Assembly: GCA_964385615.1 (NCBI GenBank)
Contig: CAYLPP010000005.1
Location: 26,130-90,129, forward strand
DNA from: an uncultured bacterium
GTDB taxonomy: Bacteria > Omnitrophota > Omnitrophia > Omnitrophales > Aquincolibacteriaceae
Direction: 5' to 3'
DNA: 64,000 nucleotides
In this document: positions 10,178 through 45,962 of the stretch, piece by piece
Numbering within the stretch: the first letter of the stretch is position 1
How the letters are laid out: every line of letters begins with the position of its first letter
Notes under the pieces: model-generated
What the model saw: the letters and a program-made list of their open reading frames with translations, nothing else
What the model was told of the DNA's origin: nothing
Database searches by the model: none
Position numbers and translations under genes: made by a program

Positions 10178-10726
10178 ATGGATACCAAGGCGCTAGCCGT
10201 CCGTCCGCCTTCAGGCGTCGATGAAAAAAAGTGGTGCGCGACTCGTTGGTTCGCGGTTTACACGCGTTCCCGCCATGAAAAAATTGCCCAACGGGAGTTA
10301 AATAAAAAAGGCATTGAGACTTTTTTGCCTTTGCGCAAAGTTGTACGTCAATGGTCTGACCGCAAGAAAACTATCGAAGAACCCCTGTTTAAAGGTTATT
10401 TATTCGTTCATACGGCTCTTTCAGAACGCTGGACTGTGCTGAATTCAGTCGGCGTTGTCAGGTTTGTGACACAAGGCGCTGAACCCGCGGAAATTCCCGA
10501 AAAAGAGCTTTCCGCCATTCGTCTTTTTGTGGAAGAAAACATTCAAGTTGATCCATTCCCGTATCTCAAAGAAGGGGAACGGGTGTATGTGCGCTCCGGG
10601 CCGTTTAAAGGCGCGGAAGGTTTCGTAGTGCGTAAGGACAAGCATTGCCGTCTGATTATTTCACTCGATATGCTGATGCAGTCTGTGTCGGTGCTGATTG
10701 ATCAAGCGTGCGTTGAACCGGTCTGA
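10178..10726 (+). CDS. UpxY-family NusG-like transcription antiterminator (NGN + KOW)
   Basis: WFAVYTRSRHEKIAQRELNKKGIETFLPL and PLFKGYLFV form an NGN domain, and the C-terminal GERVYVRSGPFKGAEGFV is KOW-like. It sits at the head of the long co-directional glycan locus. Confidence 0.75.
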   Translation: MDTKALAVRPPSGVDEKKWCATRWFAVYTRSRHEKIAQRELNKKGIETFLPLRKVVRQWSDRKKTIEEPLFKGYLFVHTALSERWTVLNSVGVVRFVTQGAEPAEIPEKELSAIRLFVEENIQVDPFPYLKEGERVYVRSGPFKGAEGFVVRKDKHCRLIISLDMLMQSVSVLIDQACVEPV

Positions 10727-10812: not shown

Positions 10813-11682
10813 TTGAAAAATAAAACACAAAATAGAGAAACTGCTGAAACGGTTATTGAAAGCCCTCAGCATTTCTTTTTGATTCCCTGGAGGGAAATCC
10901 TTCACTACAGGGATCTTCTATTTTTGTTTGTGCGCCGGGATTTTGTTTCGCGGTATAAGCAGACTATTTTGGGGCCTTTATGGTTCATCATTCAGCCCCT
11001 TGTGACGACTCTTGTCTTTACGATTGTTTTCGGACGTTTCACATCTATTTCCACCGGCCGGGTTCCGCAGGTGCTTTTTTATTTAAGCGGATTACTTGCT
11101 TGGGATTATTTCACGCTTTGTCTTTCAGGTACCGCGTATTGTTTAACTTCAAACATTCATTTATTTTCAAAAGTCTATTTCCCGCGCTTGATTGTTCCAA
11201 TTTCTCTTACGCTGTCGAATCTTCCCCGGTTAGGCCTCCAGCTTGTCATTTTTTCAGGGATTTATATTTACTGCGTAAAGCTGGGTGTGGTTCCCGTGTC
11301 TGTGCGTCCGACGGCTCTGATTTTTTTGCTGCCTGGACTTGTTTTTATGACGGCTCTGGCGGGATTAGGTCCTGGGCTTTGGGTTTCAGCGATGACGGTT
11401 AAATACCGCGATCTCCATCATCTGATTGGATTCTCAATTCAGCTTTGGATGTACGCAACGCCCGTGATTTACCCGCTGGAAACAGTTCCGGATTCCTGGA
11501 AATGGGTTCTTCTGCTCAACCCCATGACAGAGATACTCGAGTTGTACCGCCAGGCCTTTTTTGGAACCGGGGATGTCAGCTCCTTGGGTCTTGCGCTTTC
11601 CGGCGCAGTGATCACCGTTACGTTTTTAAGCGGACTGTATATGTTCAACCGGGTTCAGAGTACTTTTGTTGATACGATTTGA
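10813..11682 (+). CDS. wzm: ABC-2 type polysaccharide export permease (Wzm/TagG/KpsM-like)
   Basis: FVRRDFVSRYKQTILGPLWFIIQPL signature with six TM helices. Paralog of the C-terminal half of 29287..31032. Confidence 0.8.
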   Translation: MKNKTQNRETAETVIESPQHFFLIPWREILHYRDLLFLFVRRDFVSRYKQTILGPLWFIIQPLVTTLVFTIVFGRFTSISTGRVPQVLFYLSGLLAWDYFTLCLSGTAYCLTSNIHLFSKVYFPRLIVPISLTLSNLPRLGLQLVIFSGIYIYCVKLGVVPVSVRPTALIFLLPGLVFMTALAGLGPGLWVSAMTVKYRDLHHLIGFSIQLWMYATPVIYPLETVPDSWKWVLLLNPMTEILELYRQAFFGTGDVSSLGLALSGAVITVTFLSGLYMFNRVQSTFVDTI

Positions 11683-12866
11683 TGGCGGAGCCCTTAAAAT
11701 TCGTTTCAGATAAAACTCAGAAAATAGCGGAATTCGATGGGTTGAGAGGGATGGCGCTTTTAATGGTGGTGTTTCATCACTACAACCTTCATTCAAATTA
11801 CAGTTTGCCCATAAGTCAGTTTCTTCTCTCTGTCACAAATCTTTTTTCCATTGCCGTTGATTTCTTTTTTGCTTTATCAGGCTTTCTATTAACGAGAATT
11901 CTAATCGATCACCGCGAGTCCCCGAATCTTTTGAGGGTTTTTTTCATCCGCAGATTTTGCCGGATTGTTCCCGTTTATTATTTGCTGCTGATTTCCTATG
12001 CGCTTTTAATTCACACGAGTTTGGGTCGGATGGTTTTTTATCCCTCCGAGTTTTTGAAATGGGATCATTCCGTGAAATTTTACCTGTTATTTTTACAGAA
12101 TATTCCAATGGCCCTGCAGGGGTCTTTTATGCCGCCGTATTTGACGGTGACCTGGTCGTTGGCGGTTGAGGAACAGTTTTATCTTTTTCTCCCGTTTTTT
12201 ATTTTAATCGCCGGCTCAAAGAGACTTCCTTATGCTCTCGCGGGAATAATCACGGTTTCCGTTATTGCCCGGACGGCTATGATTGCTTTTAACCCATTTC
12301 ATTTTCCTAATCTTTGGTGGGCGGTTTATATTTCCCCTTTTTTAAGGATGGACACTCTTCTTTCAGGAGCCGTGGCCGCGGTTTTTACGCGGAAAGCAGG
12401 CTCGCTATCCTTTATTAGCAGAAATCAAAATTGGTTTTACGCTTATTTAGCCGGATTTTGGGCTTTGTTTTTTTTCTGGAGCTTCCGGCAGGATCAAATG
12501 ATTCTTTCCGTTGTGTCGACGGCTGGGTACTTCATTTTTTCCATAACGTCTTTTGTGATTATTTTATTAGTCGCTTCAGGGTCTTCGCCCGTCTGCGAAT
12601 TTCTGAGATTCCCGCTGTTCACGCATTTTGGCAAGTACTCTTACTTTATTTATCTTTTTCATATTCCAGCGCTGGGATTATTGCACGGACTGATTTTTCG
12701 GGTAAAAATTCCGCTAATCCAGGATTGGCCGACGATCGCGGTGACATTCCTTTCTTTTCTTATCGTATGGGCAGCCGCTCTTGTTTCGTGGAAACTGATC
12801 GAACGGCCGGCAATCCGTTTTGGGCATCGGTTCCAGTTTGAGCTGGGGAAGGCCGGTCTTTCGTGA
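11682..12866 (+). CDS. Acyltransferase family 3 membrane O-acyltransferase (OafA/YrhL-like)
   Basis: FDGLRGMALLMVVFHH N-terminal motif and about 10 TM helices. TGATG overlap with wzm. Confidence 0.75.
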   Translation: MAEPLKFVSDKTQKIAEFDGLRGMALLMVVFHHYNLHSNYSLPISQFLLSVTNLFSIAVDFFFALSGFLLTRILIDHRESPNLLRVFFIRRFCRIVPVYYLLLISYALLIHTSLGRMVFYPSEFLKWDHSVKFYLLFLQNIPMALQGSFMPPYLTVTWSLAVEEQFYLFLPFFILIAGSKRLPYALAGIITVSVIARTAMIAFNPFHFPNLWWAVYISPFLRMDTLLSGAVAAVFTRKAGSLSFISRNQNWFYAYLAGFWALFFFWSFRQDQMILSVVSTAGYFIFSITSFVIILLVASGSSPVCEFLRFPLFTHFGKYSYFIYLFHIPALGLLHGLIFRVKIPLIQDWPTIAVTFLSFLIVWAAALVSWKLIERPAIRFGHRFQFELGKAGLS

Positions 12867-14149
12867 AGCCCGTCGTTAAAGTTCAGAATGTTTCGAAGCT
12901 TTATTCAATCAAAGGAACTCAGACTAAAACTTTATCTGAGCTTTTTGGATGGAATCGCCGGCCTAGAACTTTCGCGCCTATTCAGCGTTCCGGGCAAATT
13001 GCTGAAGTTGGGCCTGAGCCCGGAACTTTTTGGGCGCTTAAAGATATTTCTTTTGAAGTTCAGCCGGGAGAAATTTTAGGAATTTTTGGAAAAAACGGGT
13101 CCGGAAAATCCACGTTGATGAAAATTCTTTCCCGCATTACGGCGCCGACTAAGGGCCGGGCTGTTTTGAAAGGACGCTTCATGTCTCTGCTTGAAGTCGG
13201 CACGGGATTTCATCCCGATTTGACCGGCCGCGAAAATATTTATCTCAACGCGGCCATTTTGGGGATGAGAAAATCAGAAGTGGATCTTAAGCTTGATGAA
13301 ATCATTGATTTTTCCCAGATTGGGTCATTTATCGATACGCCGGTTAAATTTTATTCCAGCGGGATGTATCTGAGGCTTGCCTTCAGCGTGGCGGCGCATC
13401 TTGAAACGGAAATTCTTATATTGGATGAAGTTTTATCCATTGGCGACCTCGATTTTCAGCAGAAATGCCTTCGGAGAATCCTGGATATTTCCCGCCAGGG
13501 GAAAACGATTATTTTTGTAAGCCACAGCATGCGGCATATTACCGACATTTGTTCGCGCGCCATCTATATATCCGGCGGTAAAGCCGCTGATGAAGGTGAT
13601 CCCGAAGATCTTGTTGAAAAGTATATTAGGGCGATTCAAAAAAACTCTACCGGCTCAACAGGCCCGATGGAGCATTTCACGCAATCCTCATTTTTCAAGA
13701 TTGAGAAAGCGGTAATTAAAAATTCGGATGGGGAAAATTCCGCGAATCTTTTATTTAAAGAACCCTTTACCGTTGATGTTGAGGTCAGCGTTTCTCAAAG
13801 TTTAAAAAATGTACGCATCGGCGCGGGTTTTGCCACCCTCAGCGAGACCTGGATCGGCCGGGTGCATCATCCTTCTGCCGAAAAGGAAAAACTCGATCTT
13901 GAGCCGGGCCGTTATCTGATTTCGTTTTCATTCTCAAATTGTTTATGGCCAGGTACGTATTACTTGGGGGTGGGGGCTCATCAAGCCGCGGATAAAGCAT
14001 CTGTGAGTCAAACCCTTGATTACATTCCAAGAGCCATGCGCTTTGCGGTTGAAGACATAGCGGGCAACTCCTCAATTCCTTCTCCGGCCCCGCATAATCA
14101 TGGGCTGGTTGCTTTGGAAGCTCAGAGCGGTTTAAAAAGGCTGAAATGA
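12863..14149 (+). CDS. wzt: Polysaccharide ABC exporter ATP-binding protein with a C-terminal carbohydrate-binding domain (Wzt/TagH-like)
   Basis: Walker A GKNGSGKST, signature YSSGM, Walker B ILILDE, and a roughly 170-aa C-terminal extension (…PGTYYLGVGAHQ…). GTGA overlap with the preceding gene. Confidence 0.85.
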   Translation: MKPVVKVQNVSKLYSIKGTQTKTLSELFGWNRRPRTFAPIQRSGQIAEVGPEPGTFWALKDISFEVQPGEILGIFGKNGSGKSTLMKILSRITAPTKGRAVLKGRFMSLLEVGTGFHPDLTGRENIYLNAAILGMRKSEVDLKLDEIIDFSQIGSFIDTPVKFYSSGMYLRLAFSVAAHLETEILILDEVLSIGDLDFQQKCLRRILDISRQGKTIIFVSHSMRHITDICSRAIYISGGKAADEGDPEDLVEKYIRAIQKNSTGSTGPMEHFTQSSFFKIEKAVIKNSDGENSANLLFKEPFTVDVEVSVSQSLKNVRIGAGFATLSETWIGRVHHPSAEKEKLDLEPGRYLISFSFSNCLWPGTYYLGVGAHQAADKASVSQTLDYIPRAMRFAVEDIAGNSSIPSPAPHNHGLVALEAQSGLKRLK

Positions 14150-14886
14150 GTTTGTTTTCCTTTTTTTCAAAGCAAAAAAAAACGGGGATTCAAAACGGCC
14201 GTTTTGAAAACTGGTTCCATGGCCTTTATGATCTCCCGGTAAAACTTCAATACACCGCCTGGCGTTACGGGCATTTAACGCACGATGAAATGCTCCTGCA
14301 GGTGGCCGCGCTGACACAATATTTAAAGCCTGGAAATGTTTTTGAGTTTGGAACTTTTGACGGGCGCACGACAGTAAATATTGCCTTAAACCTGGAAAAA
14401 AGCTCGAAGATTTACTCTCTGGATCTGCCTGACGATGTCTCTAGGGAGAATTTTCTGGAAAAAGAAAAAGATTATATGCAGCCCCAAATGACGAGGGCTC
14501 TTTTTTCTGAAAAGAAAATCGAATCTGAAGTCTTGAATAAAATCGAGCTTTTGCGCGCGGATTCAAAAGCTTTTGATTTTAGCCGCTTCTATACAAATAT
14601 CGATATGGTCCTCGTTGACGGCGGACATGACCGGATCACCGTAACGTCGGATTCCCTGAACGCTTTCCGGATGCTTCGGCCCGGAGGGGTTATTTTATGG
14701 GATGATTACAATGATTATTGGCCGGATGTTTTTGAGTTTATTAATAAGCTCTCGACCTTATTGCCGTTGTTGAGGGACGAGAGAACAGGGCTTGTGGCTT
14801 ATAAAAGTTCAAACGGCAAGAATATTGACTGGCGGGAAATAAATAAAATTCTAAAACCGGATGACCGGTTTCCGGAAAAATCATGA
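14146..14886 (+). CDS. Class I SAM-dependent methyltransferase (TylF/MycF-like O-methyltransferase fold)
   Basis: FEFGTFDGRTTVNIA and VLVDGGHD motifs. ATGA overlap with wzt. Confidence 0.65.
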   Translation: MSLFSFFSKQKKTGIQNGRFENWFHGLYDLPVKLQYTAWRYGHLTHDEMLLQVAALTQYLKPGNVFEFGTFDGRTTVNIALNLEKSSKIYSLDLPDDVSRENFLEKEKDYMQPQMTRALFSEKKIESEVLNKIELLRADSKAFDFSRFYTNIDMVLVDGGHDRITVTSDSLNAFRMLRPGGVILWDDYNDYWPDVFEFINKLSTLLPLLRDERTGLVAYKSSNGKNIDWREINKILKPDDRFPEKS

Positions 14887-15974
14887 AATCATCCAAGAGA
14901 AACATTTTGATTACCGGAGGATGCGGATTTGTGGGCCGGCATCTTCTCGCGAGGCTCAGCCGGGAAGCCGCGTCAGAGTTTTGGGTTGTGGATGACTTGA
15001 GCACGGGAAAACATCCTGAAACTTGGGAGTTTTTAAAATTATCCGCGATAACTTCCAAAAATTATCCCGGCGCAGAAACGTTTGAAATTTCGGGTACAAG
15101 TCACTCCTTGGTTTTTATCCGGGCGGACTTCATGTCAGTCACTTTGTCGGAATTAGGACGCCAGCCGGGTCTTGGAATTCCGCGGCTTCCTAAATTTGAT
15201 GAAATTTATCATTTGGCTTCGGTGGTCGGCGGGCGCGCTATGATCGACGGGGATCCGCTGATGGTCGGCATCGATTTAGGAATCGACGCCTGTTTTTTTC
15301 TCTGGGCTTCGAAAGTCAATAAGCCCGGGAGAATTTTATACGCCTCTTCCAGCGCGGCTTATCCCGTTTTCAGACAGACGGCGGATAAGGCACAGCCCCT
15401 GCGGGAAAGCGAAATTGATTTTTCAAAAGGTGTTTTCCAGCCGGACTACACCTACGGCTGGAGCAAGTTGACTGGGGAATATCTTGCCGGAATCGCCGCC
15501 GGAAAATATGGTTTAAAAGTAGCGGTGGTCCGGCCTTTTTCGGGATACGGTGAAGATCAGGACCTGACCTATCCGGTTCCCGCGATCGCGCTTCGTGTGG
15601 CCGCGCGGCAAAATCCGGTAAAAATATGGGGAAGCGGTGAGCAAAGCCGGGATTTTGTTTACATTGGAGATTGCGCGGAAGCCTGTGTCCGTGCCTGCCG
15701 AGGCATTGAGGACGGATCCGCGGTTAATATCGGCTCCGGGGTTTTGACATCTTTTAATCAGCTTGCAAGGCTGATGATGAAATTAGAAGGTTACCAGGGA
15801 AATATTCTCGGGGATGAAAACAAACCTGTCGGAGTTGCCAAGCGCTGCTGCGATCCAAAGCGGGTGCGGGAAAAACTTCAATGGGAGCCGGCTGTCACCC
15901 TGGAAGAAGGGATGGCGGGAGTTTTAAAAACGGCGCATCAGAGATTAAATTCGGGAATAAAAATTCCGGAATGA
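14883..15974 (+). CDS. NAD-dependent nucleotide-sugar epimerase/dehydratase (extended SDR)
   Basis: N-terminal ILITGGCGFVGRHL Rossmann motif and a YxxxK region (YGWSK). Confidence 0.7.
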   Translation: MKSSKRNILITGGCGFVGRHLLARLSREAASEFWVVDDLSTGKHPETWEFLKLSAITSKNYPGAETFEISGTSHSLVFIRADFMSVTLSELGRQPGLGIPRLPKFDEIYHLASVVGGRAMIDGDPLMVGIDLGIDACFFLWASKVNKPGRILYASSSAAYPVFRQTADKAQPLRESEIDFSKGVFQPDYTYGWSKLTGEYLAGIAAGKYGLKVAVVRPFSGYGEDQDLTYPVPAIALRVAARQNPVKIWGSGEQSRDFVYIGDCAEACVRACRGIEDGSAVNIGSGVLTSFNQLARLMMKLEGYQGNILGDENKPVGVAKRCCDPKRVREKLQWEPAVTLEEGMAGVLKTAHQRLNSGIKIPE

Positions 15975-17080
15975 TAAAAAAAGAAAAATCTTTCGCCGTT
16001 GTCACGACAACGATCCGTATTCCGGAACTCTTGAGACGTTACGCTCAAGATGCCCGTGATTTTAAACGGAAAATCGAGCAATTTGTGATTGCCGGGGATC
16101 GAAAAACCCCCGATGGTGTCCGTGATTTTTGCGCGCGGCTTTCTGAAGAATTTCAAATTCCTTTTGTTTATCTTTCCGCGCAGGATCAAGATAATTATTT
16201 AAAAACCCGGCCGCGGCTTAAAGAATTTCTTCCCTGGAATTGCATTCAGCGCCGGAATGCCGCCGTGCTTTACGCGTATGACAAAGGTGAAGCCGACATT
16301 ATCGTGACGCTGGATGATGATAATTTTATCTCCCATTCTGATTATTTCGGATGTCACGCCCATATCGGAGACGAGGATGAGGTTGAAGCTGTGAGCTCTT
16401 CGGCTGGATGGTGGAACATTTGTGAAATGCTGGAAGAGAGTAAGGGCCGGTATTTTTATCACAGGGGATACCCGCTTTCAAAACGCTGGCCAAGGGATGA
16501 AAAAATCAAAGTTCAAAAAATCCGGGCTTGCGCGGTGGTTAACGCCGGGCTCTGGCTTGATGATCCGGACGTGGATGCTCTGACCCGCTTGTCTTTTCCC
16601 GTCCGGGCTTCGCGCAGAAGCTCCCTTTTTAGAAACCGCGTAGCCTGCGCTCCGGGAACCTGGTCTCCGTTCAATTCACAAAATACAGCATTGGCCCGCG
16701 AAGTGATTCCGGCCTACTTTTTATTTCCGTATATCGGCCGGTATGATGATATTTGGGCGAGCTATGTCGTTCGGGCGATCGCGGATTATTTGGGAGACGT
16801 AGTGACTTATGGAACTCCGGTGGTCCGTCAAAAGCGTAACCCGCATGATTATTTTAAAGATTTTGACGACGAGCGTTTCGGTTTAACGCACAACGACGTT
16901 TTTTTGAAAGCGCTGACTGCCTGCCGGTTTCAAGGGAAAACGTACCGCGATTGTTTTGCCGAAATTGCCGAGCAGTTTCCCGCCCGGATCCATGAAGCTT
17001 GCAGGTCTTTAAAAAAAGACGCGGCGATTTTCGAGAAAGTCGTTGAAGCCATGAAAATTTGGAAAGAAACGTTTCGATGA
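15971..17080 (+). CDS. Reversibly-glycosylated-polypeptide (RGP/GT75) family protein, UDP-arabinopyranose mutase-like
   Basis: Blocks match plant RGP/UAM: VVTTTIR, TLDDDNF (DDD motif), HRGYPLS, GLWLDDPDVDALTRL, IGRYDDIWASYVVRAIADYLG. ATGA overlap with the SDR gene. The longer track ORF from 15881 runs through the SDR 3' end. Confidence 0.6.
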   Translation: MIKKEKSFAVVTTTIRIPELLRRYAQDARDFKRKIEQFVIAGDRKTPDGVRDFCARLSEEFQIPFVYLSAQDQDNYLKTRPRLKEFLPWNCIQRRNAAVLYAYDKGEADIIVTLDDDNFISHSDYFGCHAHIGDEDEVEAVSSSAGWWNICEMLEESKGRYFYHRGYPLSKRWPRDEKIKVQKIRACAVVNAGLWLDDPDVDALTRLSFPVRASRRSSLFRNRVACAPGTWSPFNSQNTALAREVIPAYFLFPYIGRYDDIWASYVVRAIADYLGDVVTYGTPVVRQKRNPHDYFKDFDDERFGLTHNDVFLKALTACRFQGKTYRDCFAEIAEQFPARIHEACRSLKKDAAIFEKVVEAMKIWKETFR

Positions 17081-17101: not shown

Positions 17102-17995
17102 ATGAGAGAAATGCCTTTAATTTCCTTTGTCATTCCGACGTTTAACCGGGCGCTATTTCTTGAAATCGTGCTTAAGGATCTGATCGCGGAGCGCCGTCTT
17201 TATTATCCCAATATGGAAATTATCGTGGTCGACGGAGGTTCCAAAGACGGCACGGCGGAAATGCTTAAAAATTATGAGAGTGAATTATCTTGCTGGGTTT
17301 CAGAGCCGGATAAAGGGCCTGGAGACGCTTTCAAAAAAGGGATTCAGAAAGCGAAGGGGGATTTTATCCGCTACATGTCTGATGACGACCGCATTATTCC
17401 GGGGTGCACCCGGAAAATGATGGAAATCATGTTGAGCCGTCCGGATTTCGATATCGTGGGCGGGGGAGTTAAATCGGTGTATTTGTCCAAGTCGGGCGAA
17501 TTGATTCCTTGCCTGGATTTTACTCCGGCCGGAGATGTCGCTTTATCCAAAGCGGCCGCGCCTGATTTGAACGGTTTTATCGTGCCGGAAGCTTGTTTGT
17601 TTCGGAAGAAACTTTTCAGCGAAATCGGTTACTGGAAGCCGAACATGATGGCTTGTGACGCTGAGTTTTTTCTCCGGACTTTAAAAAAAGGCCGGAAAAT
17701 TTTTATGGCGGATGAAGTTTATCTCCATAAATATTGGCACGACGATTCCACGGTTCTCAAAAGATTGGGCCGTATGCGGACAAGCATCTTTGAAGCGATT
17801 GCTCAAAACGCGGGCGTTATACCGGCCTCAGCTTATTATTACCGCGTTGTGATCGGGCCATGGCTTGAACCCAAAAGAAAATGGATGAAGGAGCATATTT
17901 ACCGCCCGCTTTTGATTTTAGCGGCAAAACCGTTTCACAAGCTGGGACTCCATCCCGTGCGCTTTCTGGAACGTATCAAGAAAAAGCGCTCATGA
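17102..17995 (+). CDS. Glycosyltransferase family 2
   Basis: SFVIPTFNRALFL … VVDGGSKDGT … DDD. GT-A fold N-terminal signature. Confidence 0.8.
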   Translation: MREMPLISFVIPTFNRALFLEIVLKDLIAERRLYYPNMEIIVVDGGSKDGTAEMLKNYESELSCWVSEPDKGPGDAFKKGIQKAKGDFIRYMSDDDRIIPGCTRKMMEIMLSRPDFDIVGGGVKSVYLSKSGELIPCLDFTPAGDVALSKAAAPDLNGFIVPEACLFRKKLFSEIGYWKPNMMACDAEFFLRTLKKGRKIFMADEVYLHKYWHDDSTVLKRLGRMRTSIFEAIAQNAGVIPASAYYYRVVIGPWLEPKRKWMKEHIYRPLLILAAKPFHKLGLHPVRFLERIKKKRS

Positions 17996-22569: not shown

Positions 22570-23714
22570 TGGAAGGCATGAATTATCATCTTGCCGTGAT
22601 CGCTGAAGACGGCCGCTCTTGGGCTGGCGGAGAGGTTTACCTTCGAAATATGATAACGGCGCTGAAGGTTTCAAAAAATGGAAAAAAAGCAAAGATTACG
22701 GTTTTATATTTCCCCGGCCGGACACTCGAACAAATTCAAAGAAGTTACCCTGAGGCGGATGCTTTTATCGAAATGCCCGGCGGGCGGGGAGTTATCAATT
22801 TTTTAAGGAAAATCAAACTGAACTTCTGCAAACTTAAAACCGTGAACGCGGTCATGGGAACTTTCCGGCCGGAATTTTTTAAAAAAATTCCCTTTTTGTG
22901 CTGGATCCCAGATTTACAGTATGTCAGCATGCCTGAGCTTTTTTCGAATTCGGAACGAATCCGTCAGCATGAACTTAATCGGAGCCGGGTTCAAAGCGCC
23001 CATATGATTACGGTGACGAGCCGGACGGTTCTCGATGATATGCGGGGTTGCTTCCCGGAAGGTGTTTTGAAAACGAGACTTTTGGAGCCGGTAAATCTGG
23101 TTCCTGAAACCGTTTATGAGCAGGACCCGGCTGAAATAGCCCAAAAATACGGACTTCCTGAGAAATTTTTTCATATGCCGAACCAGTTTTGGGCGCATAA
23201 AAATCATGAAATGGTTTTGGAAGCCCTTTCTCTTCTTAAAAAAGATCATCCGGATATTTGCGTTGTCTGCACCGGCCGGCCGTACGAATTCCGGGATCCT
23301 GCTTTTTTTAACCGTCTCTTGACTCAGGTTTCGCTTAAGGGTGTAAGATCACAATTTGTGCTTTTGGGTCATATCCCGGGAAAAGATATGTTCGCGCTCA
23401 TGCGCCAGTCTATCGCTCTTCTTCAGCCGTCGCTTTTTGAAGGCTGGAGTAATTCCGTTGAAGAGGCCAGAACTTTAGGGAAAACCGCTATTGTTTCGGA
23501 TTTACCCGTGCATCGGGAGAAAAAAATTCCGGGAGCTGTTTTTTTTGATCCGAAAAACGCAAAACAGCTGGCGGATATTTTGAAAGAGCTTCATTTGAAG
23601 AAAAAATTCGGACCCGACCTAAGTATGGAAAAGCAAGCCCGCGCGGAGCTTCCGGAGCGGATTGAGGTTTTTTCGGAAAAATTTATGGGAATTTTAAATG
23701 AAATCAAAAAATAA
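22566..23714 (+). CDS. Glycosyltransferase family 4 (GT-B)
   Basis: EGWSNSVEEARTLGKTAI C-terminal motif. ATGATG overlap with the preceding gene. Confidence 0.7.
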   Translation: MMEGMNYHLAVIAEDGRSWAGGEVYLRNMITALKVSKNGKKAKITVLYFPGRTLEQIQRSYPEADAFIEMPGGRGVINFLRKIKLNFCKLKTVNAVMGTFRPEFFKKIPFLCWIPDLQYVSMPELFSNSERIRQHELNRSRVQSAHMITVTSRTVLDDMRGCFPEGVLKTRLLEPVNLVPETVYEQDPAEIAQKYGLPEKFFHMPNQFWAHKNHEMVLEALSLLKKDHPDICVVCTGRPYEFRDPAFFNRLLTQVSLKGVRSQFVLLGHIPGKDMFALMRQSIALLQPSLFEGWSNSVEEARTLGKTAIVSDLPVHREKKIPGAVFFDPKNAKQLADILKELHLKKKFGPDLSMEKQARAELPERIEVFSEKFMGILNEIKK

Positions 23715-25014
23715 AGAACGGGTCTACATTCTTGGCGGCGGAGTCACCGGTTTGGCCGCGGGGATTGCTTCCGGCGTCAAAGTTTTTGAAAAAACCGCTT
23801 CGCCGGGCGGAATCTGCTCCTCGTATTACGTAAGAAAAGGTTCAAAGAAAAGGCTTCCCGAACCGCCGAAGAACGCGGAAGCTTACCGGTTTGAAATCGG
23901 CGGAGGGCACTGGATTTTCGGCTGTGACGGTGAAACCGCGAAATTCCTTTCCCGGTTCTGCAGTTTTAAGAAATACAGCCGGCGTTCGTCGGTTTTCTTT
24001 TCCCGAAATAAAATCCGGCTTCCTTACCCGCTCCAGGAACACGCGGAGCTTCTCGGGAAACCGGTTTTCGAAAAGATTCTTCGTGAAAAGAAAAGAGGTT
24101 TTCATCGGAAAATCAGAACCATGGCGGATTGGCTGGAAGCTTCTTTCGGAAAAACTCTTTGTAAGCTTTTCTTTTTCCCTTTTCATGAAAAATACACGGA
24201 TGGGCTTTACCGGAAAATTGCTCCGCAAGACGCTTATAAGTCGCCTCGATTGGGAAGAGCTAATCAGGCAAAGAAAAAACCCGCCGGCTACAACCCCGAT
24301 TATTTTTACCCTTCCAAAGGTTTAGGGTATTTGTGCGCGGGACTGGCTTCCGGATGCCGGATTGGATACGGGAAAAAGGCGGTGCGTATTGATTCTAAGA
24401 AAAGAATCGTTTGGTTCTCAGACGGCACAAAAATTTCTTATGACAGGCTTGTTTCAACCCTGCCGTTGAACCGTATGCTGGAACTGACAGGGCTTAAAAC
24501 CGGAGAAAAACCCGCGCCTTTTACTTCTGTTCTGGTTTTAAATATTGGAGCTGAACGGGGAGTTTCCTGCCCTCCGGATCACTGGCTCTATGTGCCGGAT
24601 ACAAAGTCCGGATTCAGCCGCGTTGGTTTTTATAGTAACGTCGATACCGGGTTTTTACCGCTTTCGGCAAGAGTGAAAAAAAATCGGACCAGCATTTATG
24701 TGGAGAAAGCTTTCGCAAACGGGCGGAAACCTTCAGAAGCGGAAATAAAACGGTATTCAGCTGAAGCCGTGCGCGAACTTCAATCATGGGGCTGGATTGG
24801 TAAAACGGAAGTTGTGGATCCGACATGGATTGACGTGGCTTACACCTGGTCTTATCCGGATTCCGGCTGGACGAAAAAAGCAATTGATGTCTTGGAGCGG
24901 CGGGACATTCATCCGCTTGGCCGTTACGGCCGCTGGCATTTTCAGGGGATCGCGCAATCTATTCGGGACGGTCTTGAAGCTGGGCGTGTGTTGAAGGGAA
25001 GGAAGAATGCCTAA
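23698..25014 (+). CDS. NAD(P)/FAD-dependent oxidoreductase (amine-oxidase/UDP-galactopyranose-mutase-like fold)
   Basis: N-terminal YILGGGVTGLAAG dinucleotide-binding motif and FEKTASPGGICSSY. Function uncertain. Confidence 0.5.
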   Translation: MKSKNKERVYILGGGVTGLAAGIASGVKVFEKTASPGGICSSYYVRKGSKKRLPEPPKNAEAYRFEIGGGHWIFGCDGETAKFLSRFCSFKKYSRRSSVFFSRNKIRLPYPLQEHAELLGKPVFEKILREKKRGFHRKIRTMADWLEASFGKTLCKLFFFPFHEKYTDGLYRKIAPQDAYKSPRLGRANQAKKKPAGYNPDYFYPSKGLGYLCAGLASGCRIGYGKKAVRIDSKKRIVWFSDGTKISYDRLVSTLPLNRMLELTGLKTGEKPAPFTSVLVLNIGAERGVSCPPDHWLYVPDTKSGFSRVGFYSNVDTGFLPLSARVKKNRTSIYVEKAFANGRKPSEAEIKRYSAEAVRELQSWGWIGKTEVVDPTWIDVAYTWSYPDSGWTKKAIDVLERRDIHPLGRYGRWHFQGIAQSIRDGLEAGRVLKGRKNA

Positions 25015-28133: not shown

Positions 28134-29290
28134 GTTCGGAAAAACTTCACATTTGCTATGTGATCGCGCCCGGCGGAGGGCCTGAAACCTACGTGCGGAA
28201 TTTGGCGCCATGGCTGACCGCGCAGGGGCACAGAGTTTCCGTAGTTACTCTTGGCAAAGAACTCCATTTTCCGCCGGAGATTAAAACGGTTTGCGCGCGG
28301 GGTGCCGTGAAACATTATTGGGTTTCGAAATTTTTCGGTAATTTCCGGCAGTGGGCCCTGCGGCTGAGAAGTTTTGAGTGGGAACAGGCGATTAAAGGGT
28401 CTTTGGAAGAGATTGAAAGAACGCGAAAAGTTGATTTGGTGGAGGTGACGGAAGGGATTTCGATTGGTCTTTTAAGAAAGCGCTGGAAGGTTGTGGTCCG
28501 GATTCACGGCTCGGACTGGAGTTTCCGGCATTTCTGCCGTGATGAAGGAAGCCGTAATGATTACGCGCTGATTCAGGCCGAAAAGAAACAGCTCGAGCAA
28601 GCGAACGGCGTTATTTCGATCAGCCGTCATTCCGCCGATCATGTTAGTAAGGCCTGCCATTTTTCAAGGAACCTCATTGAAGTTATTCCGTATCCCGTTG
28701 TACAGCATTTCAAATATAAGAGAGACGGCAATAAGCCCGAAAACCGCATCCTCAGCGTGGGGCGGCTGGAAAAAAGAAAAGGAACCCATACTCTCGTTCA
28801 GGCCATGGAAATTGTTTGGAAAAAATTTCCCGAAATAGAACTTTGTCTTTTTGGGCATGAAGCAGGATTTTCTAAAGAACAACTGCTGAGGATGGTTTCG
28901 GAAAAGAACCGTTCAAAAATCGGTTTTATGGGTTTTGTTTCCCAGGAAACGCTCGCGGATTATTATTCAAAGTCCGTTTTATACGCAGCGCCCACTCAGT
29001 ATGAAACGTTCGGCTACACCTTATTGGAGGCTATGTCCTTCGCGTTGCCTGTTGTCACCACGGCTGTCGGTGCGATTCCGGAGTTGATTGAGGATGGAGT
29101 CAACGGTAAGCTTGTTCCTTACGGCGACTTTAAAAAATTAGCCGGTGTGATCACGGAACTTATAGAAGACCCGCTTCAAAGAGAGAAGATGGGGGAGAAT
29201 GGTTTGCGGAAAGCCGGTGAATATACTTTGGAAAAAATTGCTCCCAGAACACTCGAGTTTTATTTTAAGACGCTGAAGGCGGATTCATGA
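28130..29290 (+). CDS. Glycosyltransferase family 4 (GT-B)
   Basis: ETFGYTLLEAMSFALPVV motif. GTGA overlap with the preceding gene. Confidence 0.75.
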   Translation: MSSEKLHICYVIAPGGGPETYVRNLAPWLTAQGHRVSVVTLGKELHFPPEIKTVCARGAVKHYWVSKFFGNFRQWALRLRSFEWEQAIKGSLEEIERTRKVDLVEVTEGISIGLLRKRWKVVVRIHGSDWSFRHFCRDEGSRNDYALIQAEKKQLEQANGVISISRHSADHVSKACHFSRNLIEVIPYPVVQHFKYKRDGNKPENRILSVGRLEKRKGTHTLVQAMEIVWKKFPEIELCLFGHEAGFSKEQLLRMVSEKNRSKIGFMGFVSQETLADYYSKSVLYAAPTQYETFGYTLLEAMSFALPVVTTAVGAIPELIEDGVNGKLVPYGDFKKLAGVITELIEDPLQREKMGENGLRKAGEYTLEKIAPRTLEFYFKTLKADS

Positions 29291-31032
29291 TTTCAATCGT
29301 CATACGCACTAAAAATGAGGCGAAGGCAATTGAGAAAACACTTCAGCTTTGCCTGTCCCAGAAAGAGGTTCCGGAATTTGAAATAATCGTGATTGATTCC
29401 GGATCGACGGACGGAACTCTGGATATTATCCGCCGTTACCCCGCCGTGAAAATTCTTCATTATGACCAGCCGGTTTTTAGTTTTGGACACGCTTTAAACC
29501 AGGCTTTCAAGGAAGCTAAGGGAGATATTTTGGTTGCGTTGAGCGCGCACGCTTACCCGGCAAGCGAGTATTGGCTGAAAAATCTTATCGAACCCTTTGA
29601 GGATCCACAAGTTGCCGGTGTTTATGGACGGCAGCTGCCCCATAAAGATGCCTGGCCGCCGGTTGAGCGTGAATATTGCGTGGGATATGGAGCGAATCCC
29701 TTAAAGATCATCTCGGCGGAGAAAGTTACTTTTTCAAACGCGAATTCAGCCATTCGAAAATCCTGCTGGCAGGAACGGTTTTTTGCGGAGCATTTAATGC
29801 ATACGGAAGATGTGGAATGGGCTCACGCCATGGTTCAATCCGGATACATTATTCATTATCGTCCTAAAGCTGAGGTTTATCACTCTCACAACGAGTCCTT
29901 GAAGCAGGTTTTTGACCGCTGTTATAAAGGGATGAAGGGATATCGCCTGATTAAAGGTGGAAACCGGCAAAGGGAGCTTGGGGTTTTTTGGATTTTTCCG
30001 AAATGGTACGGGGAAACCAGCCGGGATATTCGGTGGGTTCTAGAAAAAAAGACCGGGTATAAGTGGATTTTTATTGCACCGGTGTACCGGCTTTTTTATG
30101 TACTGGGGCTTATTTCAGCCGATATGCCCGGCGCTTTATGGGTGCCGTTGGAAAAAGTCTGTAATAAAATTTCAAAAAAAATGATAGGGAAAACAGAAAG
30201 CGCGCCGTGCAACGAGGCTTTTCCCGTCTTTCACTTTGAAGCGAACCGTGAATCCGGGTTAAGACTCCGTGAAATCTGGCGGTATCGGGAACTTCTGTTC
30301 TTCCTCATGTGGCGGGATATCAAAGTCCGTTACAAGCAGACCGCTCTCGGTGCCGCATGGGCCATCATTCAGCCGTTTATGACCATGGTTATTTTCAGCA
30401 TTTTCTTCGGTCATTTAGGGAAGATTCCTTCGGATGGAATTCCTTACCCGCTGTTTTCTTTTACGGCACTGGTTCCCTGGACTTTTTTTGCCAACGGCTT
30501 AACGCAATCGTCTAACAGTCTGGTGGGAAGCTCCAATTTGATTACGAAAGTTTATTTCCCGCGGCTGATTATTCCTATTGCGTCGGTTTTGACGGGTGTT
30601 ATTGACTTTCTGCTGGCGTTTCTAGTTCTGATCGGAATGATGCTTTGTTTTGGTCTTCACATTACTTCTTCGGTGATCTGGCTTCCGGTGTTTTTGTTTC
30701 TCGCCCTTGTGACCGCTCTCGGGGCGGGTTTCTGGCTTTCGGCTTTAAACGTGGAATTTAGAGACGTTCGGCATGTCATGCCGTTTTTAATTCAGTTTTG
30801 GATGTTCGCGACACCGATTGCTTACCCAAGCAGTCTTCTTCCAGAGCCCTGGAGAACTTTTTATGGGCTTAATCCGATGACCGGCGTTATCGCGGGATTT
30901 CGCTGGGTCCTTTTAGGCAATGACCCGCCCGGGCCCATCATTTTCGTGTCAGCTTTTACGGCAATTCTTATTTTAATCAGCGGGCTGAGGTATTTTAGGC
31001 GCATGGAAAAGCATTTCGCGGATGTGGTGTGA
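29287..31032 (+). CDS. Fusion protein: N-terminal glycosyltransferase family 2 domain + C-terminal ABC-2 polysaccharide export permease (Wzm)
   Basis: aa 1 to ~290 are GT-A (ISIVIRTKNE … IIVIDSGSTDGT). aa ~320-581 are a Wzm paralog (WRDIKVRYKQTALGAAWAIIQPF, six TM helices). One uninterrupted 581-codon frame. Confidence 0.7.
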   Translation: MISIVIRTKNEAKAIEKTLQLCLSQKEVPEFEIIVIDSGSTDGTLDIIRRYPAVKILHYDQPVFSFGHALNQAFKEAKGDILVALSAHAYPASEYWLKNLIEPFEDPQVAGVYGRQLPHKDAWPPVEREYCVGYGANPLKIISAEKVTFSNANSAIRKSCWQERFFAEHLMHTEDVEWAHAMVQSGYIIHYRPKAEVYHSHNESLKQVFDRCYKGMKGYRLIKGGNRQRELGVFWIFPKWYGETSRDIRWVLEKKTGYKWIFIAPVYRLFYVLGLISADMPGALWVPLEKVCNKISKKMIGKTESAPCNEAFPVFHFEANRESGLRLREIWRYRELLFFLMWRDIKVRYKQTALGAAWAIIQPFMTMVIFSIFFGHLGKIPSDGIPYPLFSFTALVPWTFFANGLTQSSNSLVGSSNLITKVYFPRLIIPIASVLTGVIDFLLAFLVLIGMMLCFGLHITSSVIWLPVFLFLALVTALGAGFWLSALNVEFRDVRHVMPFLIQFWMFATPIAYPSSLLPEPWRTFYGLNPMTGVIAGFRWVLLGNDPPGPIIFVSAFTAILILISGLRYFRRMEKHFADVV

Positions 31033-32243
31033 TGAATCAAACGGCCATTCAGATACATAATCTAAGTAAACGCTACAAAATCGGCCGGGCCGAATCATAT
31101 AAAACGCTTCGCGACGCCATCAGTTTGTGGGGCCCGAAAATTTTTTCTGGAAAAGGAAAATCGGAAGATGCCGAAGAGGGCATGATATGGGCGTTGAAGA
31201 ATATTTCTTTCGAAATTAAAAAAGGGGAAGTGGTTGGAATTATCGGCCGTAATGGTGCGGGGAAAAGCACACTGCTCAAAATTCTTTCGCAAATTACGGA
31301 TCCCTCTGAAGGATCGGTGGATATTTACGGAAAGGTCAGTTCTTTGCTTGAGGTTGGAACCGGATTTCATCCTGAGTTAACCGGCCGGGAGAACGTTTAT
31401 TTGAATGCGGCGATTTTGGGGATGAAAAAGCGCGAGATTCAAAATCGATTTGATGAAATTGTGGCTTTTGCTGAGGTTGAGAAGTTTATGGATACGCCGG
31501 TCAAACATTTCTCCAGCGGGATGTATATGCGCTTGGCTTTTTCGATCGCGGCCCATTTGAGTCCGGATATTATGATTGTGGATGAGGTTTTGGCCGTCGG
31601 CGACGCGGCGTTTCAGAAAAAGTGTCTTGATAAAATGGACGGCGCCGCCAAATCCGGACGGACGATTCTTTTTGTGAACCACAATCTCGGGCAAATCCGC
31701 AGACTTTGCACTTCAGCGCTTTGGCTGGAAAATGGACAATGCAAATCTTTCGGCCCTGTCGGCGAAGTGACGGCCGCTTATCAGGCATCACTGTCTAATG
31801 TCCATTTTGATGTGAATGAATCGATAAAGAATCAAGAAGGTTTTGTATCCTGGAGAATTGAAGGCTTGGACTCAAATGTTATTGAACGGGAAAAGCCGTT
31901 TACGCTGGAATGCCGTCTTCAGCTTAAACGGAAGGTATACAACGGTCATCACGGGCTGATTCTGAAGAATGTCGACGGCCAAAATGTCGCAGGCTGGGCG
32001 TTCAATGGGTTAAAGCTTGAACCCGGACTGCATATCCTTCGATATCAAATTCCATACCTGCCTTTGCGTCCCGGGACCTATTATCTCTACGCTTCGCTTT
32101 GGGATGGGGCTTTAAAAATTGACGCAAGCCATTTAATGCCTGAATTAATTTTTGCCACTCCTGAGTATAGCGAACTTAGCGATGAATGGGCGGGGATTTT
32201 AAATCTTCCCTGCAGCATTGATATTAAAAAGGTTTCTCAGTGA
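31029..32243 (+). CDS. wzt: Polysaccharide ABC exporter ATP-binding protein with a C-terminal carbohydrate-binding domain (Wzt paralog)
   Basis: Walker A GRNGAGKST, highly similar to the 12863 gene through the NBD (LLEVGTGFHP.LTGREN.YLNAAILGM), with a divergent C-terminal domain. GTGATG overlap with the preceding gene. Confidence 0.85.
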   Translation: MMNQTAIQIHNLSKRYKIGRAESYKTLRDAISLWGPKIFSGKGKSEDAEEGMIWALKNISFEIKKGEVVGIIGRNGAGKSTLLKILSQITDPSEGSVDIYGKVSSLLEVGTGFHPELTGRENVYLNAAILGMKKREIQNRFDEIVAFAEVEKFMDTPVKHFSSGMYMRLAFSIAAHLSPDIMIVDEVLAVGDAAFQKKCLDKMDGAAKSGRTILFVNHNLGQIRRLCTSALWLENGQCKSFGPVGEVTAAYQASLSNVHFDVNESIKNQEGFVSWRIEGLDSNVIEREKPFTLECRLQLKRKVYNGHHGLILKNVDGQNVAGWAFNGLKLEPGLHILRYQIPYLPLRPGTYYLYASLWDGALKIDASHLMPELIFATPEYSELSDEWAGILNLPCSIDIKKVSQ

Positions 32244-38190: not shown

Positions 38191-39624
38191 ATGAAAAAAA
38201 CAATATCAAAAGCTAAGGAACGCTGGAGAACAATCCTTTCATTTTTGGGAATTCAGGCATTCTTTTCCTTAATGGTGATTAGTTTTTCATGGGGCGGGCA
38301 GAATATTTTTGCTGTCCTGATTGGAATTCCTCCGCTCGTGGCCGCCGCGTTAATGAGCCGGCGGAGCTTGTTTTTCATTTTTTACTTTATGTGCGTGCTT
38401 TTTGTTGTGGGTCAGCGCACTCTCTACTGGGGGCCTTCGCTCCGGTTCGTGCCTGGAGAAATGCTTTTATATCTTCTCGGGTTTCTTTGCCTTGGGTATA
38501 AAACACCGTCTCCGCTTCTACGGCAAGGAGGAATTCCGGCAGCTGTTTGGGTTTTATTTTTAGCGACGTTTTTCGCGGTTTATTCGACGGCCCGGTGGAC
38601 TTATTATCAGCCTGGAGATTTAAACCAAGCTTTCTTTTACGCTAAAATGATGTGGTTGAGCATTCCCGCTTTCTTTGTATGCGGCCGGCTGATTCAGCGC
38701 TTTGAGCATGTCCAGACAACGATTCTTCTAATTTCAGTAGGATGTTTCTTCCTTTCTGGGTTGGCGCTGGCTGAATATTACCATCTGCCCTTTATCCGTT
38801 ATTTCGGAGGTTTCGTGGAAGCGAAAAGCCATGATTCATTCAGCGCCGAAGGCTTTAGGCGCCTTGGCGCCAGTTTCTGGGGTGGTCCTATGCTTGCGGG
38901 TTATTTAACGGTTTCCTTTCCTGTGATCATGTCTCAGTTTTTTAATTCGAAATCCAACGTTCAAAAAATGATTACCCTGGGAACCTTAGTCATGAATTTT
39001 CTAGTGATCTATTATTCAGGACATCGCGGACTTTGGGTGACTTGTCTGATTTCAATCGCTATTTTCTTTTATTTAAAAGGGCTTAAAGGAATTTTTATCC
39101 TGCTTCTTTTAGGATCTCTGGGACTTCATTTTGTGCCGGATATCGCGAAAGAAAGAATACAATCTGTGGTAGGGTCGACGGAGGATTCCAGCGCTAAAAA
39201 ACGCAAAGAGAGAGCTGAATATGCCTGGGAGATGGTTAAGCGCGATCCTATTATCGGAAGCGGATGGGGTTCAAGCGGGCTGGTTCACAGCGATTTTCTG
39301 CAGCTTTGGGCGGATGCCGGCGGCGTCGCTTTTCTTTCACTGCTGTTTATTTTCCTGCAAATTACCAGCCGTCTTTGGATTTGGTTTCGAAAGATCAGAG
39401 ACCGAAGTTATCGGGAATATTACTTCGGGTTATTTGCTTCGGTTTCAGCCGGGTTTATCATTTTATGGCACCAAGCCTGGTTTAACCTCCCGGAACAATT
39501 TTTTCCTTTCTGGATTCTGATGGCGCTTGCTTACCATTATCCCACTATTTGTTTGAATGATACGAGAGTCGCTTTAACAACTTTAATGAATAAAGTTGAA
39601 ATGGAGAAAAAACAAAATGCCTAA
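38191..39624 (+). CDS. Wzy_C-domain membrane protein: O-antigen ligase/polymerase family (alternatively a PglL-type O-oligosaccharyltransferase)
   Basis: About 12 TM helices with a periplasmic loop carrying IIGSGWGSSGLVHSDFLQLWADAGGVAF, a Wzy_C-like motif. Preceded by the only 63-nt gap in this part of the locus. Confidence 0.6.
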   Translation: MKKTISKAKERWRTILSFLGIQAFFSLMVISFSWGGQNIFAVLIGIPPLVAAALMSRRSLFFIFYFMCVLFVVGQRTLYWGPSLRFVPGEMLLYLLGFLCLGYKTPSPLLRQGGIPAAVWVLFLATFFAVYSTARWTYYQPGDLNQAFFYAKMMWLSIPAFFVCGRLIQRFEHVQTTILLISVGCFFLSGLALAEYYHLPFIRYFGGFVEAKSHDSFSAEGFRRLGASFWGGPMLAGYLTVSFPVIMSQFFNSKSNVQKMITLGTLVMNFLVIYYSGHRGLWVTCLISIAIFFYLKGLKGIFILLLLGSLGLHFVPDIAKERIQSVVGSTEDSSAKKRKERAEYAWEMVKRDPIIGSGWGSSGLVHSDFLQLWADAGGVAFLSLLFIFLQITSRLWIWFRKIRDRSYREYYFGLFASVSAGFIILWHQAWFNLPEQFFPFWILMALAYHYPTICLNDTRVALTTLMNKVEMEKKQNA

Positions 39625-45958: not shown

Positions 45959-45962
45959 AGAT

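Follow-up and report, generated by a model that had tools for sequence, protein, structure and literature searches.

A GT75-family protein with an altered active-site signature in a surface-glycan locus of an uncultured Omnitrophota bacterium, a putative flavin-independent pyranose/furanose mutase

Results

The GT75 gene, its family and its fold

The window analysed here is a stretch of 64,000 nucleotides (64 kb) of contig CAYLPP010000005.1 from an uncultured bacterium of the Omnitrophota (assembly GCA_964385615.1). It contains a glycan-assembly locus (10178-56882, + strand) that holds, with all genes on one strand, a NusG paralogue, two Wzm/Wzt sets, ∼25 glycosyltransferases (GTs) and modifying enzymes, including methyl-, acyl- and acetyltransferases, an aminotransferase and a fusion of a phosphoglycosyl transferase (PGT) with a dehydratase. 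Our study concerns one gene of this locus, the open reading frame (ORF) 15971-17080 (+). Its 369-aa product, beginning MIKKEKSFAVVTTTIR, is a predicted metal-dependent nucleoside diphosphate (NDP)-sugar pyranose/furanose mutase of the GT75 (RGP/MtdL) family, based on Pfam, homology to MtdL and an AlphaFold2 model. The preceding gene encodes an extended short-chain dehydrogenase/reductase (SDR) of 363 aa, hereafter SDR0 (14883-15974, +), a predicted NAD+-retaining NDP-sugar epimerase as judged from motifs, gene linkage and fusions, and its stop codon overlaps the GT75 start by 4 nt (ATGA). An alternative GT75 start at 15881 was rejected, because it would overlap the SDR0 gene by 94 nt and because homologues and the database entry begin at 15971.

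An initial annotation, made from the sequence alone, had pointed to the ATGA coupling and to five motif blocks resembling the plant reversibly glycosylated polypeptide/UDP-L-arabinopyranose mutase (RGP/UAM) family. The coupling and all five blocks are present: VVTTTIR (residues 10-16), TLDDDNF (113-119), HRGYPLS (164-170), GLWLDDPDVDALTRL (193-207) and IGRYDDIWASYVVRAIADYLG (255-275). The plant strings quoted there agree with what we take to be the AtRGP1 sequence, which also fits the substitutions given in PMC9937993.

The Pfam model RGP (PF03214) matches the protein with E=2.9e-12 and 46.9 bits at a gathering score of 23.8, the match being limited to residues 164-367. NCBIfam has no model for the protein, and weak Pfam matches to STELLO and FTCD_C were under the cut-off and discarded. 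Among solved structures, the best sequence match is to the MtdL chains (7XPR, 7YUA and others; E=2.4e-42, residues 5-335), for which 7XPR and 7YUA carry the deposited name 'Transglycosylse'. The 7XPR chains belong to MtdL, a GT75 mutase from the A201A pathway that depends on Mn2+ and acts on GDP-L-galactopyranose and GDP-L-fucopyranose (PMC9937993). As a single sequence, the window protein matches the solved rice UAM2 chain 8CID with E=4.9e-4. A profile of 30 relatives aligned with MtdL over the full length (E=6e-78) and with 8CID over the C-terminal half only (E=1.3e-7). The AlphaFold2 model (predicted local distance difference test 95.8, predicted template modelling score 0.94) has a GT-A Rossmann-like N-domain, an MtdL-type core and a C-terminal helical domain. 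In Foldseek it superposes on MtdL with a template modelling (TM) score of 0.87 (root-mean-square deviation 2.3 A, 30% identity) and on rice UAM2 with 0.61 (16% identity). The possibility of a better match to an unrelated GT-A family did not hold, as other GT-A folds such as GlfT2 scored 0.44 or below. The 369-aa protein is a genuine GT75/RGP-family member, as had been supposed, and among characterised proteins it is closest to the bacterial GDP-sugar mutases MtdL and Hyg20 rather than to plant UAM.

A sister subfamily with Gln287 and Ile/Val87

Residues were compared in MtdL numbering, with roles taken from MtdL structures and mutagenesis (PMC9937993), and conservation was judged across an alignment of 30 sequences and across 80 genomic relatives. 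The window protein, the query of our searches, keeps T13, I15, D43 (MtdL D40) and N118 (MtdL Asn112); its DDD (DXD) motif is D115-D116-D117, the nucleophile Arg159 of MtdL corresponds to R165, Asp195 to D200 and Ser228/Gln229 to S236/Q237. Arg257, Asp260, Arg289 and His292 are the same in both proteins, and R94/R95 are also among the residues mapped to MtdL. R159, D195, S228/Q229, R257, D260, the DXD motif, R289 and H292 (MtdL numbers) are invariant in the alignment and in the 80 relatives.

The protein differs from MtdL at four positions: Asn42 is Lys45, Ser86 is Cys91, Asp87 is Ile92 and His287 is Gln287. Lys42 is the majority residue of the MtdL branch as well and therefore does not discriminate between subfamilies, and position 86 is S or C among the relatives. 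Gln287 is found in the query and in 78 of the 80 relatives, Ile or Val at position 87 in 74 of them. Of 120 query matches, 119 have Gln287 and about 110 Ile/Val87, while among 120 MtdL matches Asp87 is universal (120/120) and occurs together with His287 in 117. Identity is ∼32% between the two groups and 49-50% inside each of them. Among the best 150 50%-identity cluster representatives, 88 have Gln287, 55 have His287 and a few are mixed forms. Since Gln287 and Ile/Val87 separate query-type from MtdL-type sequences, the query belongs to a separate sister subfamily of MtdL/Hyg20, which bears this signature and is under strong constraint. The near-uniformity of both residues across phyla argues for a functional variant rather than decay.

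At the base-contact positions T13/D40/K42/S86, the query subfamily has the consensus of the MtdL-type branch, and the query itself has the guanine-selecting residues T13, D43 and C91, position 86 not being Asp. The UDP-type selectors of the plant enzymes are Pro13, Asp42, Asp86 and Ser87, and those at 13 and 86 were probed in MtdL by the exchanges T13P and S86D (PMC9937993); the corresponding residues of the window protein are Thr, Lys, Cys and Ile.

The claim that bacterial members are rare had to be given up. A word-indexed search returned 2107 proteins at E<=1e-5, nearly all unnamed, and 484 species-representative genomes encode a GT75 relative. An exhaustive HMMER search gave 3642 50%-identity cluster representatives at E<=1e-3, of which 778 reached E<=1e-30. 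The best 80 of the 484 genomes are all metagenome-assembled or single-cell genomes and represent Acidobacteriota/Bryobacterales, Patescibacteria, Nitrospirota/Nitrospinota, Planctomycetia, Proteobacteria, Chlamydiae, Melainabacteria and a few archaea. The Gln287/Ile87 subfamily is large and almost confined to uncultured bacteria. Two GT75 proteins show further architectures: P0077 (477 aa) is GT75 fused to a Methyltransf_11 domain, and P0361 (570 aa) is a GT75 protein with a C-terminal extension of ∼200 aa to which no domain was assigned.

The partner epimerase SDR0

Gene neighbourhoods were counted in 79 non-redundant related loci. An SDR0 orthologue (45-64% identity) is present in 35 of them, in 30 of these directly upstream of GT75 on the same strand. 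Natural fusions with SDR0 as N-terminal and GT75 as C-terminal part are P0365, a metagenome protein of 742 aa, and a 721-aa ORF in L050 (L050:5093-7258, +), a Saccharibacteria metagenome-assembled genome.

The invariant motifs of SDR0 are TGGCGFVGRHL (with GxxGxxG), LASvVGGR, YASSSAAYP..Q, TYGWSKLTGEY and VVDDLSTG; the latter is the acidic end of β2 that typifies epimerases and dehydratases retaining NAD+. SDR0 has the Ser-Tyr-Lys triad (S156/S157, Y191 and K195 in YGWSK), and no dehydratase/decarboxylase Glu/Asp was found in the active-site motifs. GDP-mannose 3,5-epimerase (GME) and GDP-fucose synthase (Fcl) possess, besides Ser-Tyr-Lys, a catalytic Cys (C145/C109) and Lys217 (GM35E) or His179 (GMER) (PMC8787198). 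LASxVGG and YASSxxxYP..Q of SDR0 are also found in this GME/Fcl lineage. In an alignment with an AtGME sequence and with the canonical Fcl of the Streptomyces locus L084, the extra Cys plus Lys/His pair was not found in SDR0, which has invariant Ala158 and Tyr230 there.

Comparisons by NCBIfam, PDB sequence, PDB profile and Foldseek ended in near-ties among GME, Fcl, UDP-hexose and UDP-glucuronic acid (UDP-GlcA) 4-epimerases and UDP-xylose synthase (UXS). The best PDB profile matches, including UXS, lie between E 1e-30 and 6e-36, and Foldseek gives a TM score of 0.72-0.76 for both GME and 4-epimerase. Because of its motifs, the missing dehydratase/decarboxylase Glu/Asp and the missing Cys/Lys(His) pair, we read SDR0 as a redox-neutral epimerase, predicted to be neither a canonical GME nor a canonical Fcl, and it is probably a single-centre enzyme.

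Neighbourhoods of related genes

All genes up to five positions from GT75 were clustered in the 79 loci and the cluster representatives annotated. In context A, a small GT2 of ∼246 aa (neighbour cluster 1) flanks GT75 at position -1 or -2 in 35 of the 79 loci, 24 of which also carry SDR0. This GT2 resembles polyprenyl-phosphate sugar synthases (dolichyl-P-hexose transferase, AglJ, PgfS, ArnC). The loci often contain multi-pass proteins of the LA_3751 family (8-9 transmembrane segments) or of an unnamed family (6-8 segments), and a protein with four segments whose best match is ArnE. Here the furanose product may often be passed to polyprenyl phosphate for use by GT-C enzymes, as the gene content suggests.

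In some Patescibacteria loci of context A, a fusion of an RfaE-domain-II-like nucleotidyltransferase with a type-II phosphomannose isomerase cupin adjoins the GT2-SDR0-GT75 module (272 aa, L022:7236-8054, -; homologues in L018, L025, L028 and L031). The fusion may be an unusual sugar-1-phosphate nucleotidyltransferase of adenylyl/cytidylyl type.

Context B comprises about eight loci with a SIS/GmhA-like protein, an HddA-like kinase, an HddC/ManC-like nucleotidyltransferase, a Gmd-like dehydratase, a small cupin and an RmlD-like reductase, a gene set typical of GDP-heptose pathways. In L047, L057, L066, L078 and L079, the query-type GT75 lies within a seemingly complete GDP-(6-deoxy)heptose pathway (∼5 kb on each side of position 10000), which suggests a putative flavin-independent route to heptofuranose donors. 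In Campylobacter jejuni, the heptofuranose step is assigned to FADH2 mutases (PMC12369002, PMC10680097). In context C, about four loci combine a kinase, a nucleotidyltransferase, Gmd-like and Fcl-like proteins, and two of the Fcl-like proteins possess both the Cys and the His of canonical Fcl.

MtdL-type genes on long contigs belong to hygromycin-A-like natural-product clusters (L084, L086, L087). In the Bryobacteraceae locus L085 (8001-11582), an MtdL-type GT75 (Asp87/His287) is followed by a 518-aa protein with nine transmembrane segments and an ArnC-like small GT2, which is 41% identical to the GT2 cluster flanking query-type genes. The link to a lipid carrier thus extends beyond the Gln287 subfamily. 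We also compared active-site substitutions with neighbourhood type, which was meant to reveal different substrates. No substitutions tracking the neighbourhood were seen; the 80 relatives share one GT75 signature in all contexts.

Other genes of the glycan locus

At the head of the 46-kb locus lies the NusG paralogue (10178-10726, +), which has the same place in the closest related locus (L001/L003) and probably acts as an antiterminator specific to this operon. It is followed by Wzm, an acyltransferase-3, Wzt with a Wzt_C domain, a Methyltransf_24 protein, SDR0, GT75 and two GT2 genes. In the closest relative, L003 (64% identity), the genes run likewise as NusG-Wzm-acyltransferase-Wzt-SDR0-GT75-GT2. 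The GT2 directly downstream of GT75 (17102-17995, +; Pfam Glycos_transf_2) has a 49%-identical orthologue in the same position in L003, and because of this retained gene order it is a candidate, by inference only, for the direct consumer of the furanosyl donor.

The two ABC-transporter sets (10813-11682 and 12863-14149; 29287-31032 and 31029-32243, all +) both include a Wzt protein with a Wzt_C carbohydrate-binding domain, and the second Wzm (29287-31032, 581 aa) has the unusual architecture of a fusion to an N-terminal GT2 domain. The Methyltransf_24 protein (14146-14886, +), located between Wzt and SDR0, may be the chain-terminating methyltransferase of an ABC-transporter-dependent pathway; no homologue occurs near GT75 in the 79 related loci. 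A 438-aa flavoprotein-like ORF (23698-25014, +) has only a weak Pfam match (Amino_oxidase). In the PDB, its sequence matches only eukaryote-type UDP-galactopyranose mutases (UGMs), from T. cruzi (4dsg, E=3.4e-10) and Aspergillus (∼6e-7), and it contains WLYVPD...FSR and a C-terminal GRYGRWHF aligned with GRFGAWRY of UGM. This ORF possibly encodes another pyranose/furanose mutase of the locus, one of the flavin type.

Further along follow many GT4 and GT2 genes, the GT2-Wzm fusion with its Wzt, a Wzy_C protein, a DegT aminotransferase (39596-40777, +) and a hexapeptide acetyltransferase (40777-41325, +). One GT4 is fused to a polysaccharide deacetylase domain (32240-34183, +; 647 aa). The 3' end is formed by an 830-aa fusion (54390-56882, +) of a phosphoglycosyl transferase (Bac_transf), CoA_binding_3 and a PglF-like dehydratase (Polysacc_synt_2). 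Together with the aminotransferase and the acetyltransferase, this fusion resembles a PglF/E/D/C-type route, which would provide diacetamido-trideoxyhexose as initiating sugar.

Two PMT_2 proteins of GT-C type surround an ArnC-like GT2 in the 3' part. The first (45891-47681, +; seven predicted transmembrane segments) is a possible user of a lipid-phosphate sugar, the second (48494-49591, +) is a PMT_2-like membrane protein. The GT2 between them (47686-48402, +; 238 aa) is of the polyprenyl-phosphate sugar synthase type (AglJ/ArnC/PpgS-like) and matched 32 members of cluster 1 with at best 37% identity. As the initial annotation had stated, a nucleotide-sugar dehydrogenase and a second SDR exist at 49578-51793. 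The dehydrogenase (49578-50768, +) passes only a generic NDP-sugar dehydrogenase model, and the best PDB match of the GalE-like distal SDR (50735-51793, +) is the decarboxylase 8VR2. The other small GT2 (51817-52506, +) is likewise related to the polyprenyl-phosphate sugar synthase cluster and matched 34 cluster 1 members (best 28% identity). The adjacent 646-aa protein (52508-54448, +) has about eight predicted transmembrane segments and no family match and is possibly a GT-C-like partner of this GT2.

Discussion

Proposed function of the GT75 protein

The initial annotation had read the protein as a non-flavin pyranose/furanose mutase, and this is still what we regard as its best interpretation. 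From family membership, fold, residue conservation and gene linkage, all of them observed, we infer mutase activity, nucleotide, sugar and downstream user. On this basis we consider it reasonably likely that the protein is an NDP-sugar pyranose/furanose mutase that needs a divalent cation but no flavin and provides a furanosyl donor for the glycan of the locus. By analogy to MtdL, Arg165 would attack the nucleotide sugar at C1, Asp260 would act as base and Asp200 would orient the adduct; the sugar ring would open and reclose via O4, and the NDP would be rejoined. The NDP would be held by the DDD motif, the metal ion, Arg257, Arg289 and His292, while the metal site should differ from that of MtdL by Gln287 in place of the His ligand, and Ile92 would replace Asp87 beside the sugar. 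SDR0 most likely supplies the pyranose substrate, starting from a common nucleotide sugar; alternatively it may act on the furanose product.

The nucleotide is somewhat more probably GDP, which is favoured by contexts B and C, the MtdL-type base-contact residues and the GME/Fcl-lineage motifs of SDR0. The donor could then be used directly for the O-antigen-like glycan by a cytoplasmic GT, such as the downstream GT2. Since two ArnC-like GT2s of the window adjoin GT-C-like proteins, an alternative is that an ArnC-like GT2 moves the furanose to polyprenyl phosphate for GT-C enzymes outside the membrane. A wider version of this idea is tentative and, in our view, has less in its favour than a mutase as such. 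In it, the Gln287/Ile87 GT75, SDR0, an ArnC-like synthase, an ArnE-like flippase and a GT-C enzyme would form an undescribed, widespread pathway to polyprenyl-phosphate-linked furanose donors in Patescibacteria, Acidobacteriota, Nitrospirota and others. The mutase, flavin-free and with its metal site re-engineered, would serve glycosylation outside the membrane, possibly from a GDP-sugar that is neither L-Gal from a canonical GME nor L-Ara. In the literature, we found no lipid-linked furanose route with RGP homologues.

Several points weigh against the function proposed here. The Mn ligand His287 and the essential Asp87 of MtdL are both replaced, so that mutase activity is not to be assumed: His287 binds Mn2+ in MtdL and its loss is linked to the inactive AtRGP5, while Asp87 contacts the sugar O4 and the variants D87N and D87S are inactive (PMC9937993). 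The 64-kb window has no GDP-mannose genes (ManB, ManC, Gmd, Fcl). SDR0 fails the Cys/Lys test for GDP-mannose 3,5-epimerases, judging by its motifs, which would make the textbook GDP-L-Gal route unavailable, and its best profile matches are a UDP-hexose 4-epimerase (E 6e-36) and a UDP-GlcA 4-epimerase (1e-33), slightly above GME (2e-31). An SDR0 homologue of Sphingomonas citri (57% identical, L083:10001-11074) has no GT75 nearby and sits alone between clpB and a gene for a major facilitator superfamily (MFS) transporter. In addition, the ArnC-like GT2 is not adjacent to GT75 in the window or in the closest relatives L003-L006, which weakens the lipid-carrier step for the window.

Three other functions were weighed against the mutase acting on a GDP-sugar. 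The initial annotation had proposed a route UDP-Glc → UDP-GlcA → UDP-Xyl → UDP-L-Arap → UDP-L-Araf, in which the dehydrogenase at 49578 and the SDR at 50735 would lead to UDP-Xyl, SDR0 to UDP-L-Arap and GT75 to UDP-L-Araf. The plant UAMs of the GT75 family do this last reaction (PMC9937993), SDR0 is like 4-epimerases in its active-site motif and profile matches, and a dehydrogenase and an SDR do occur in the locus. However, the protein is far nearer to the GDP-specific MtdL than to UAM, and Thr13 and the missing Asp86 are the opposite of UDP-type selectors. The distal SDR reads ISSSMVF instead of STSEVFG in 8VR2 and thus lacks the Glu in the Thr/Ser-x-Glu signature of UXS/ArnA-type decarboxylases. 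The best equivalog-type match of the dehydrogenase is UDP-ManNAc dehydrogenase, far below the cut-off. The dehydrogenase/SDR pair lies 33 kb off and adjoins its own ArnC-like GT2 and 8-segment protein, and a dehydrogenase homologue is near GT75 in only one of the 79 related loci. Because of the missing decarboxylase Glu, the distant pair, the rare linkage and the GDP-type selectors, we hold the UDP-L-Ara route to be quite improbable.

A non-flavin UDP-galactopyranose mutase would be more self-contained, requiring one common precursor, which suits small Patescibacteria genomes: a GalE-type SDR0 would convert UDP-Glc to UDP-Galp and GT75 this to UDP-D-Galf. SDR0 indeed lacks the second acid/base pair, its top profile match is a UDP-hexose 4-epimerase, and plant GT75 enzymes can interconvert UDP-Galp and UDP-Galf. 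Its SSSAAY can be likened to the SSSATVY of GalE. Yet the GDP-type base-contact residues, the GDP-sugar-like loci of same-signature relatives and the GME/Fcl-lineage motifs of SDR0 make this function unlikely, and it would be redundant if the UGM-like flavoprotein (23698-25014) already makes UDP-Galf. It is equally doubtful that the protein is no mutase at all, and instead a self- or arginine-glycosylating GT-A protein, a conventional GT or a non-catalytic partner like the class-2 plant RGPs. D87N, D87S and loss of His287 are tied to inactivity in characterised members, GT75 proteins also autoglycosylate, and GlfT2, with a GT-A fold, is the next structural neighbour. On the other hand, the remaining catalytic residues are invariant across phyla and Gln287 is constrained, which implies selection on the active site, and the linkage or fusion to a nucleotide-sugar epimerase and the placement in complete nucleotide-sugar pathways fit a nucleotide-sugar-modifying enzyme better.

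Comparison with known systems

Of the known systems, MtdL from Marinactinospora thermotolerans (A201A; PDB 7XPR/7XPS/7XPT/7XPU/7YUA) is homologous over the full length (32% identity) and shares the DDD motif, the nucleophilic Arg, Asp195/Asp260, Ser-Gln, Arg257, Arg289, His292, Thr13 and Asp40. Unlike MtdL, the window gene is part of a cell-surface glycan locus instead of an antibiotic cluster and is coupled to a different SDR. Hyg20 from Streptomyces hygroscopicus, the GDP-L-fucopyranose mutase of the hygromycin A pathway, is of the same family and presumed chemistry, and some query-type relatives adjoin Gmd-like and Fcl-like genes, which is what GDP-L-fucose as substrate would lead one to expect. 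The Hyg20-like Streptomyces protein P0247 (31% identity to the query) differs in having Asp87/His287 and in its natural-product cluster, which contains a canonical Fcl (GSSCIYP, SHVLPAL), while SDR0 is without both of those catalytic residues. The plant UAM/RGP proteins (OsUAM1, AtRGP1-3) share PF03214, the DXD motif, the catalytic Arg and Asp and a metal-dependent, flavin-free ring contraction. The likeness to plant UAM stressed by the initial annotation is nevertheless the lesser one: only the C-terminal half aligns significantly, and the plant enzymes use UDP-sugars and have Pro13/Asp86/Ser87, whereas the window protein has Thr13 and no Asp86.

Flavin mutases (UGM/Glf; C. jejuni HS41.17, HS41.15 and HS10.16) catalyse the same net reaction with an unrelated fold and FADH2, and bacteria usually rely on them for the furanose donors of capsules and O-antigens (PMC12369002, PMC10680097). 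The furanose pathways of C. jejuni HS:41 and HS:10 were considered as a precedent and set aside, as their mutases are FADH2 enzymes, not GT75. The Arn pathway (ArnA-ArnC-ArnE/F-ArnT) and mycobacterial decaprenyl-phospho-arabinofuranose share the logic of a lipid-phosphate sugar donor for glycosylation outside the membrane, and relatives of the window gene link GT75 to an SDR, an ArnC-like GT2, an ArnE-like protein with four transmembrane segments and GT-C-like proteins. Unlike these systems, the furanose would be made at the nucleotide-sugar level by GT75, and the lipid genes of the window are 30 kb away from it. There is no equivalog-level orthology to Arn components, since all NCBIfam scores are far below the cut-off.

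Implications

Both characterised bacterial GT75 mutases, MtdL and Hyg20, come from actinomycete antibiotic pathways, and we found no others in the literature; bacterial cell-surface furanoses are generally credited to flavin-dependent mutases. What appears to be new is an uncharacterised GT75 sister subfamily that equals or exceeds the MtdL type in diversity and occurs in surface-glycan loci of phyla that are mostly uncultured. As read from the sequences, it has an altered metal ligand, an altered sugar-contact residue and its own partner epimerase. The natural SDR0-GT75 fusions are ready-made constructs for probing this chemistry, and the cultured S. citri is a tractable source for finding out the function of SDR0-type epimerases. 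If the lipid-linked pathway is true, the ABC-transporter-exported, O-antigen-like glycan of the window would receive an unusual furanose beside a second furanose from the UGM-like flavoenzyme. If active, the subfamily would give bacterial envelopes a second way to obtain furanosyl donors, one that needs no flavin, and possibly be a new enzyme source for NDP-furanoses. It may also mark unusual furanose-containing glycans, perhaps built from lipid-phosphate-linked donors analogous to mycobacterial decaprenyl-phospho-arabinose.

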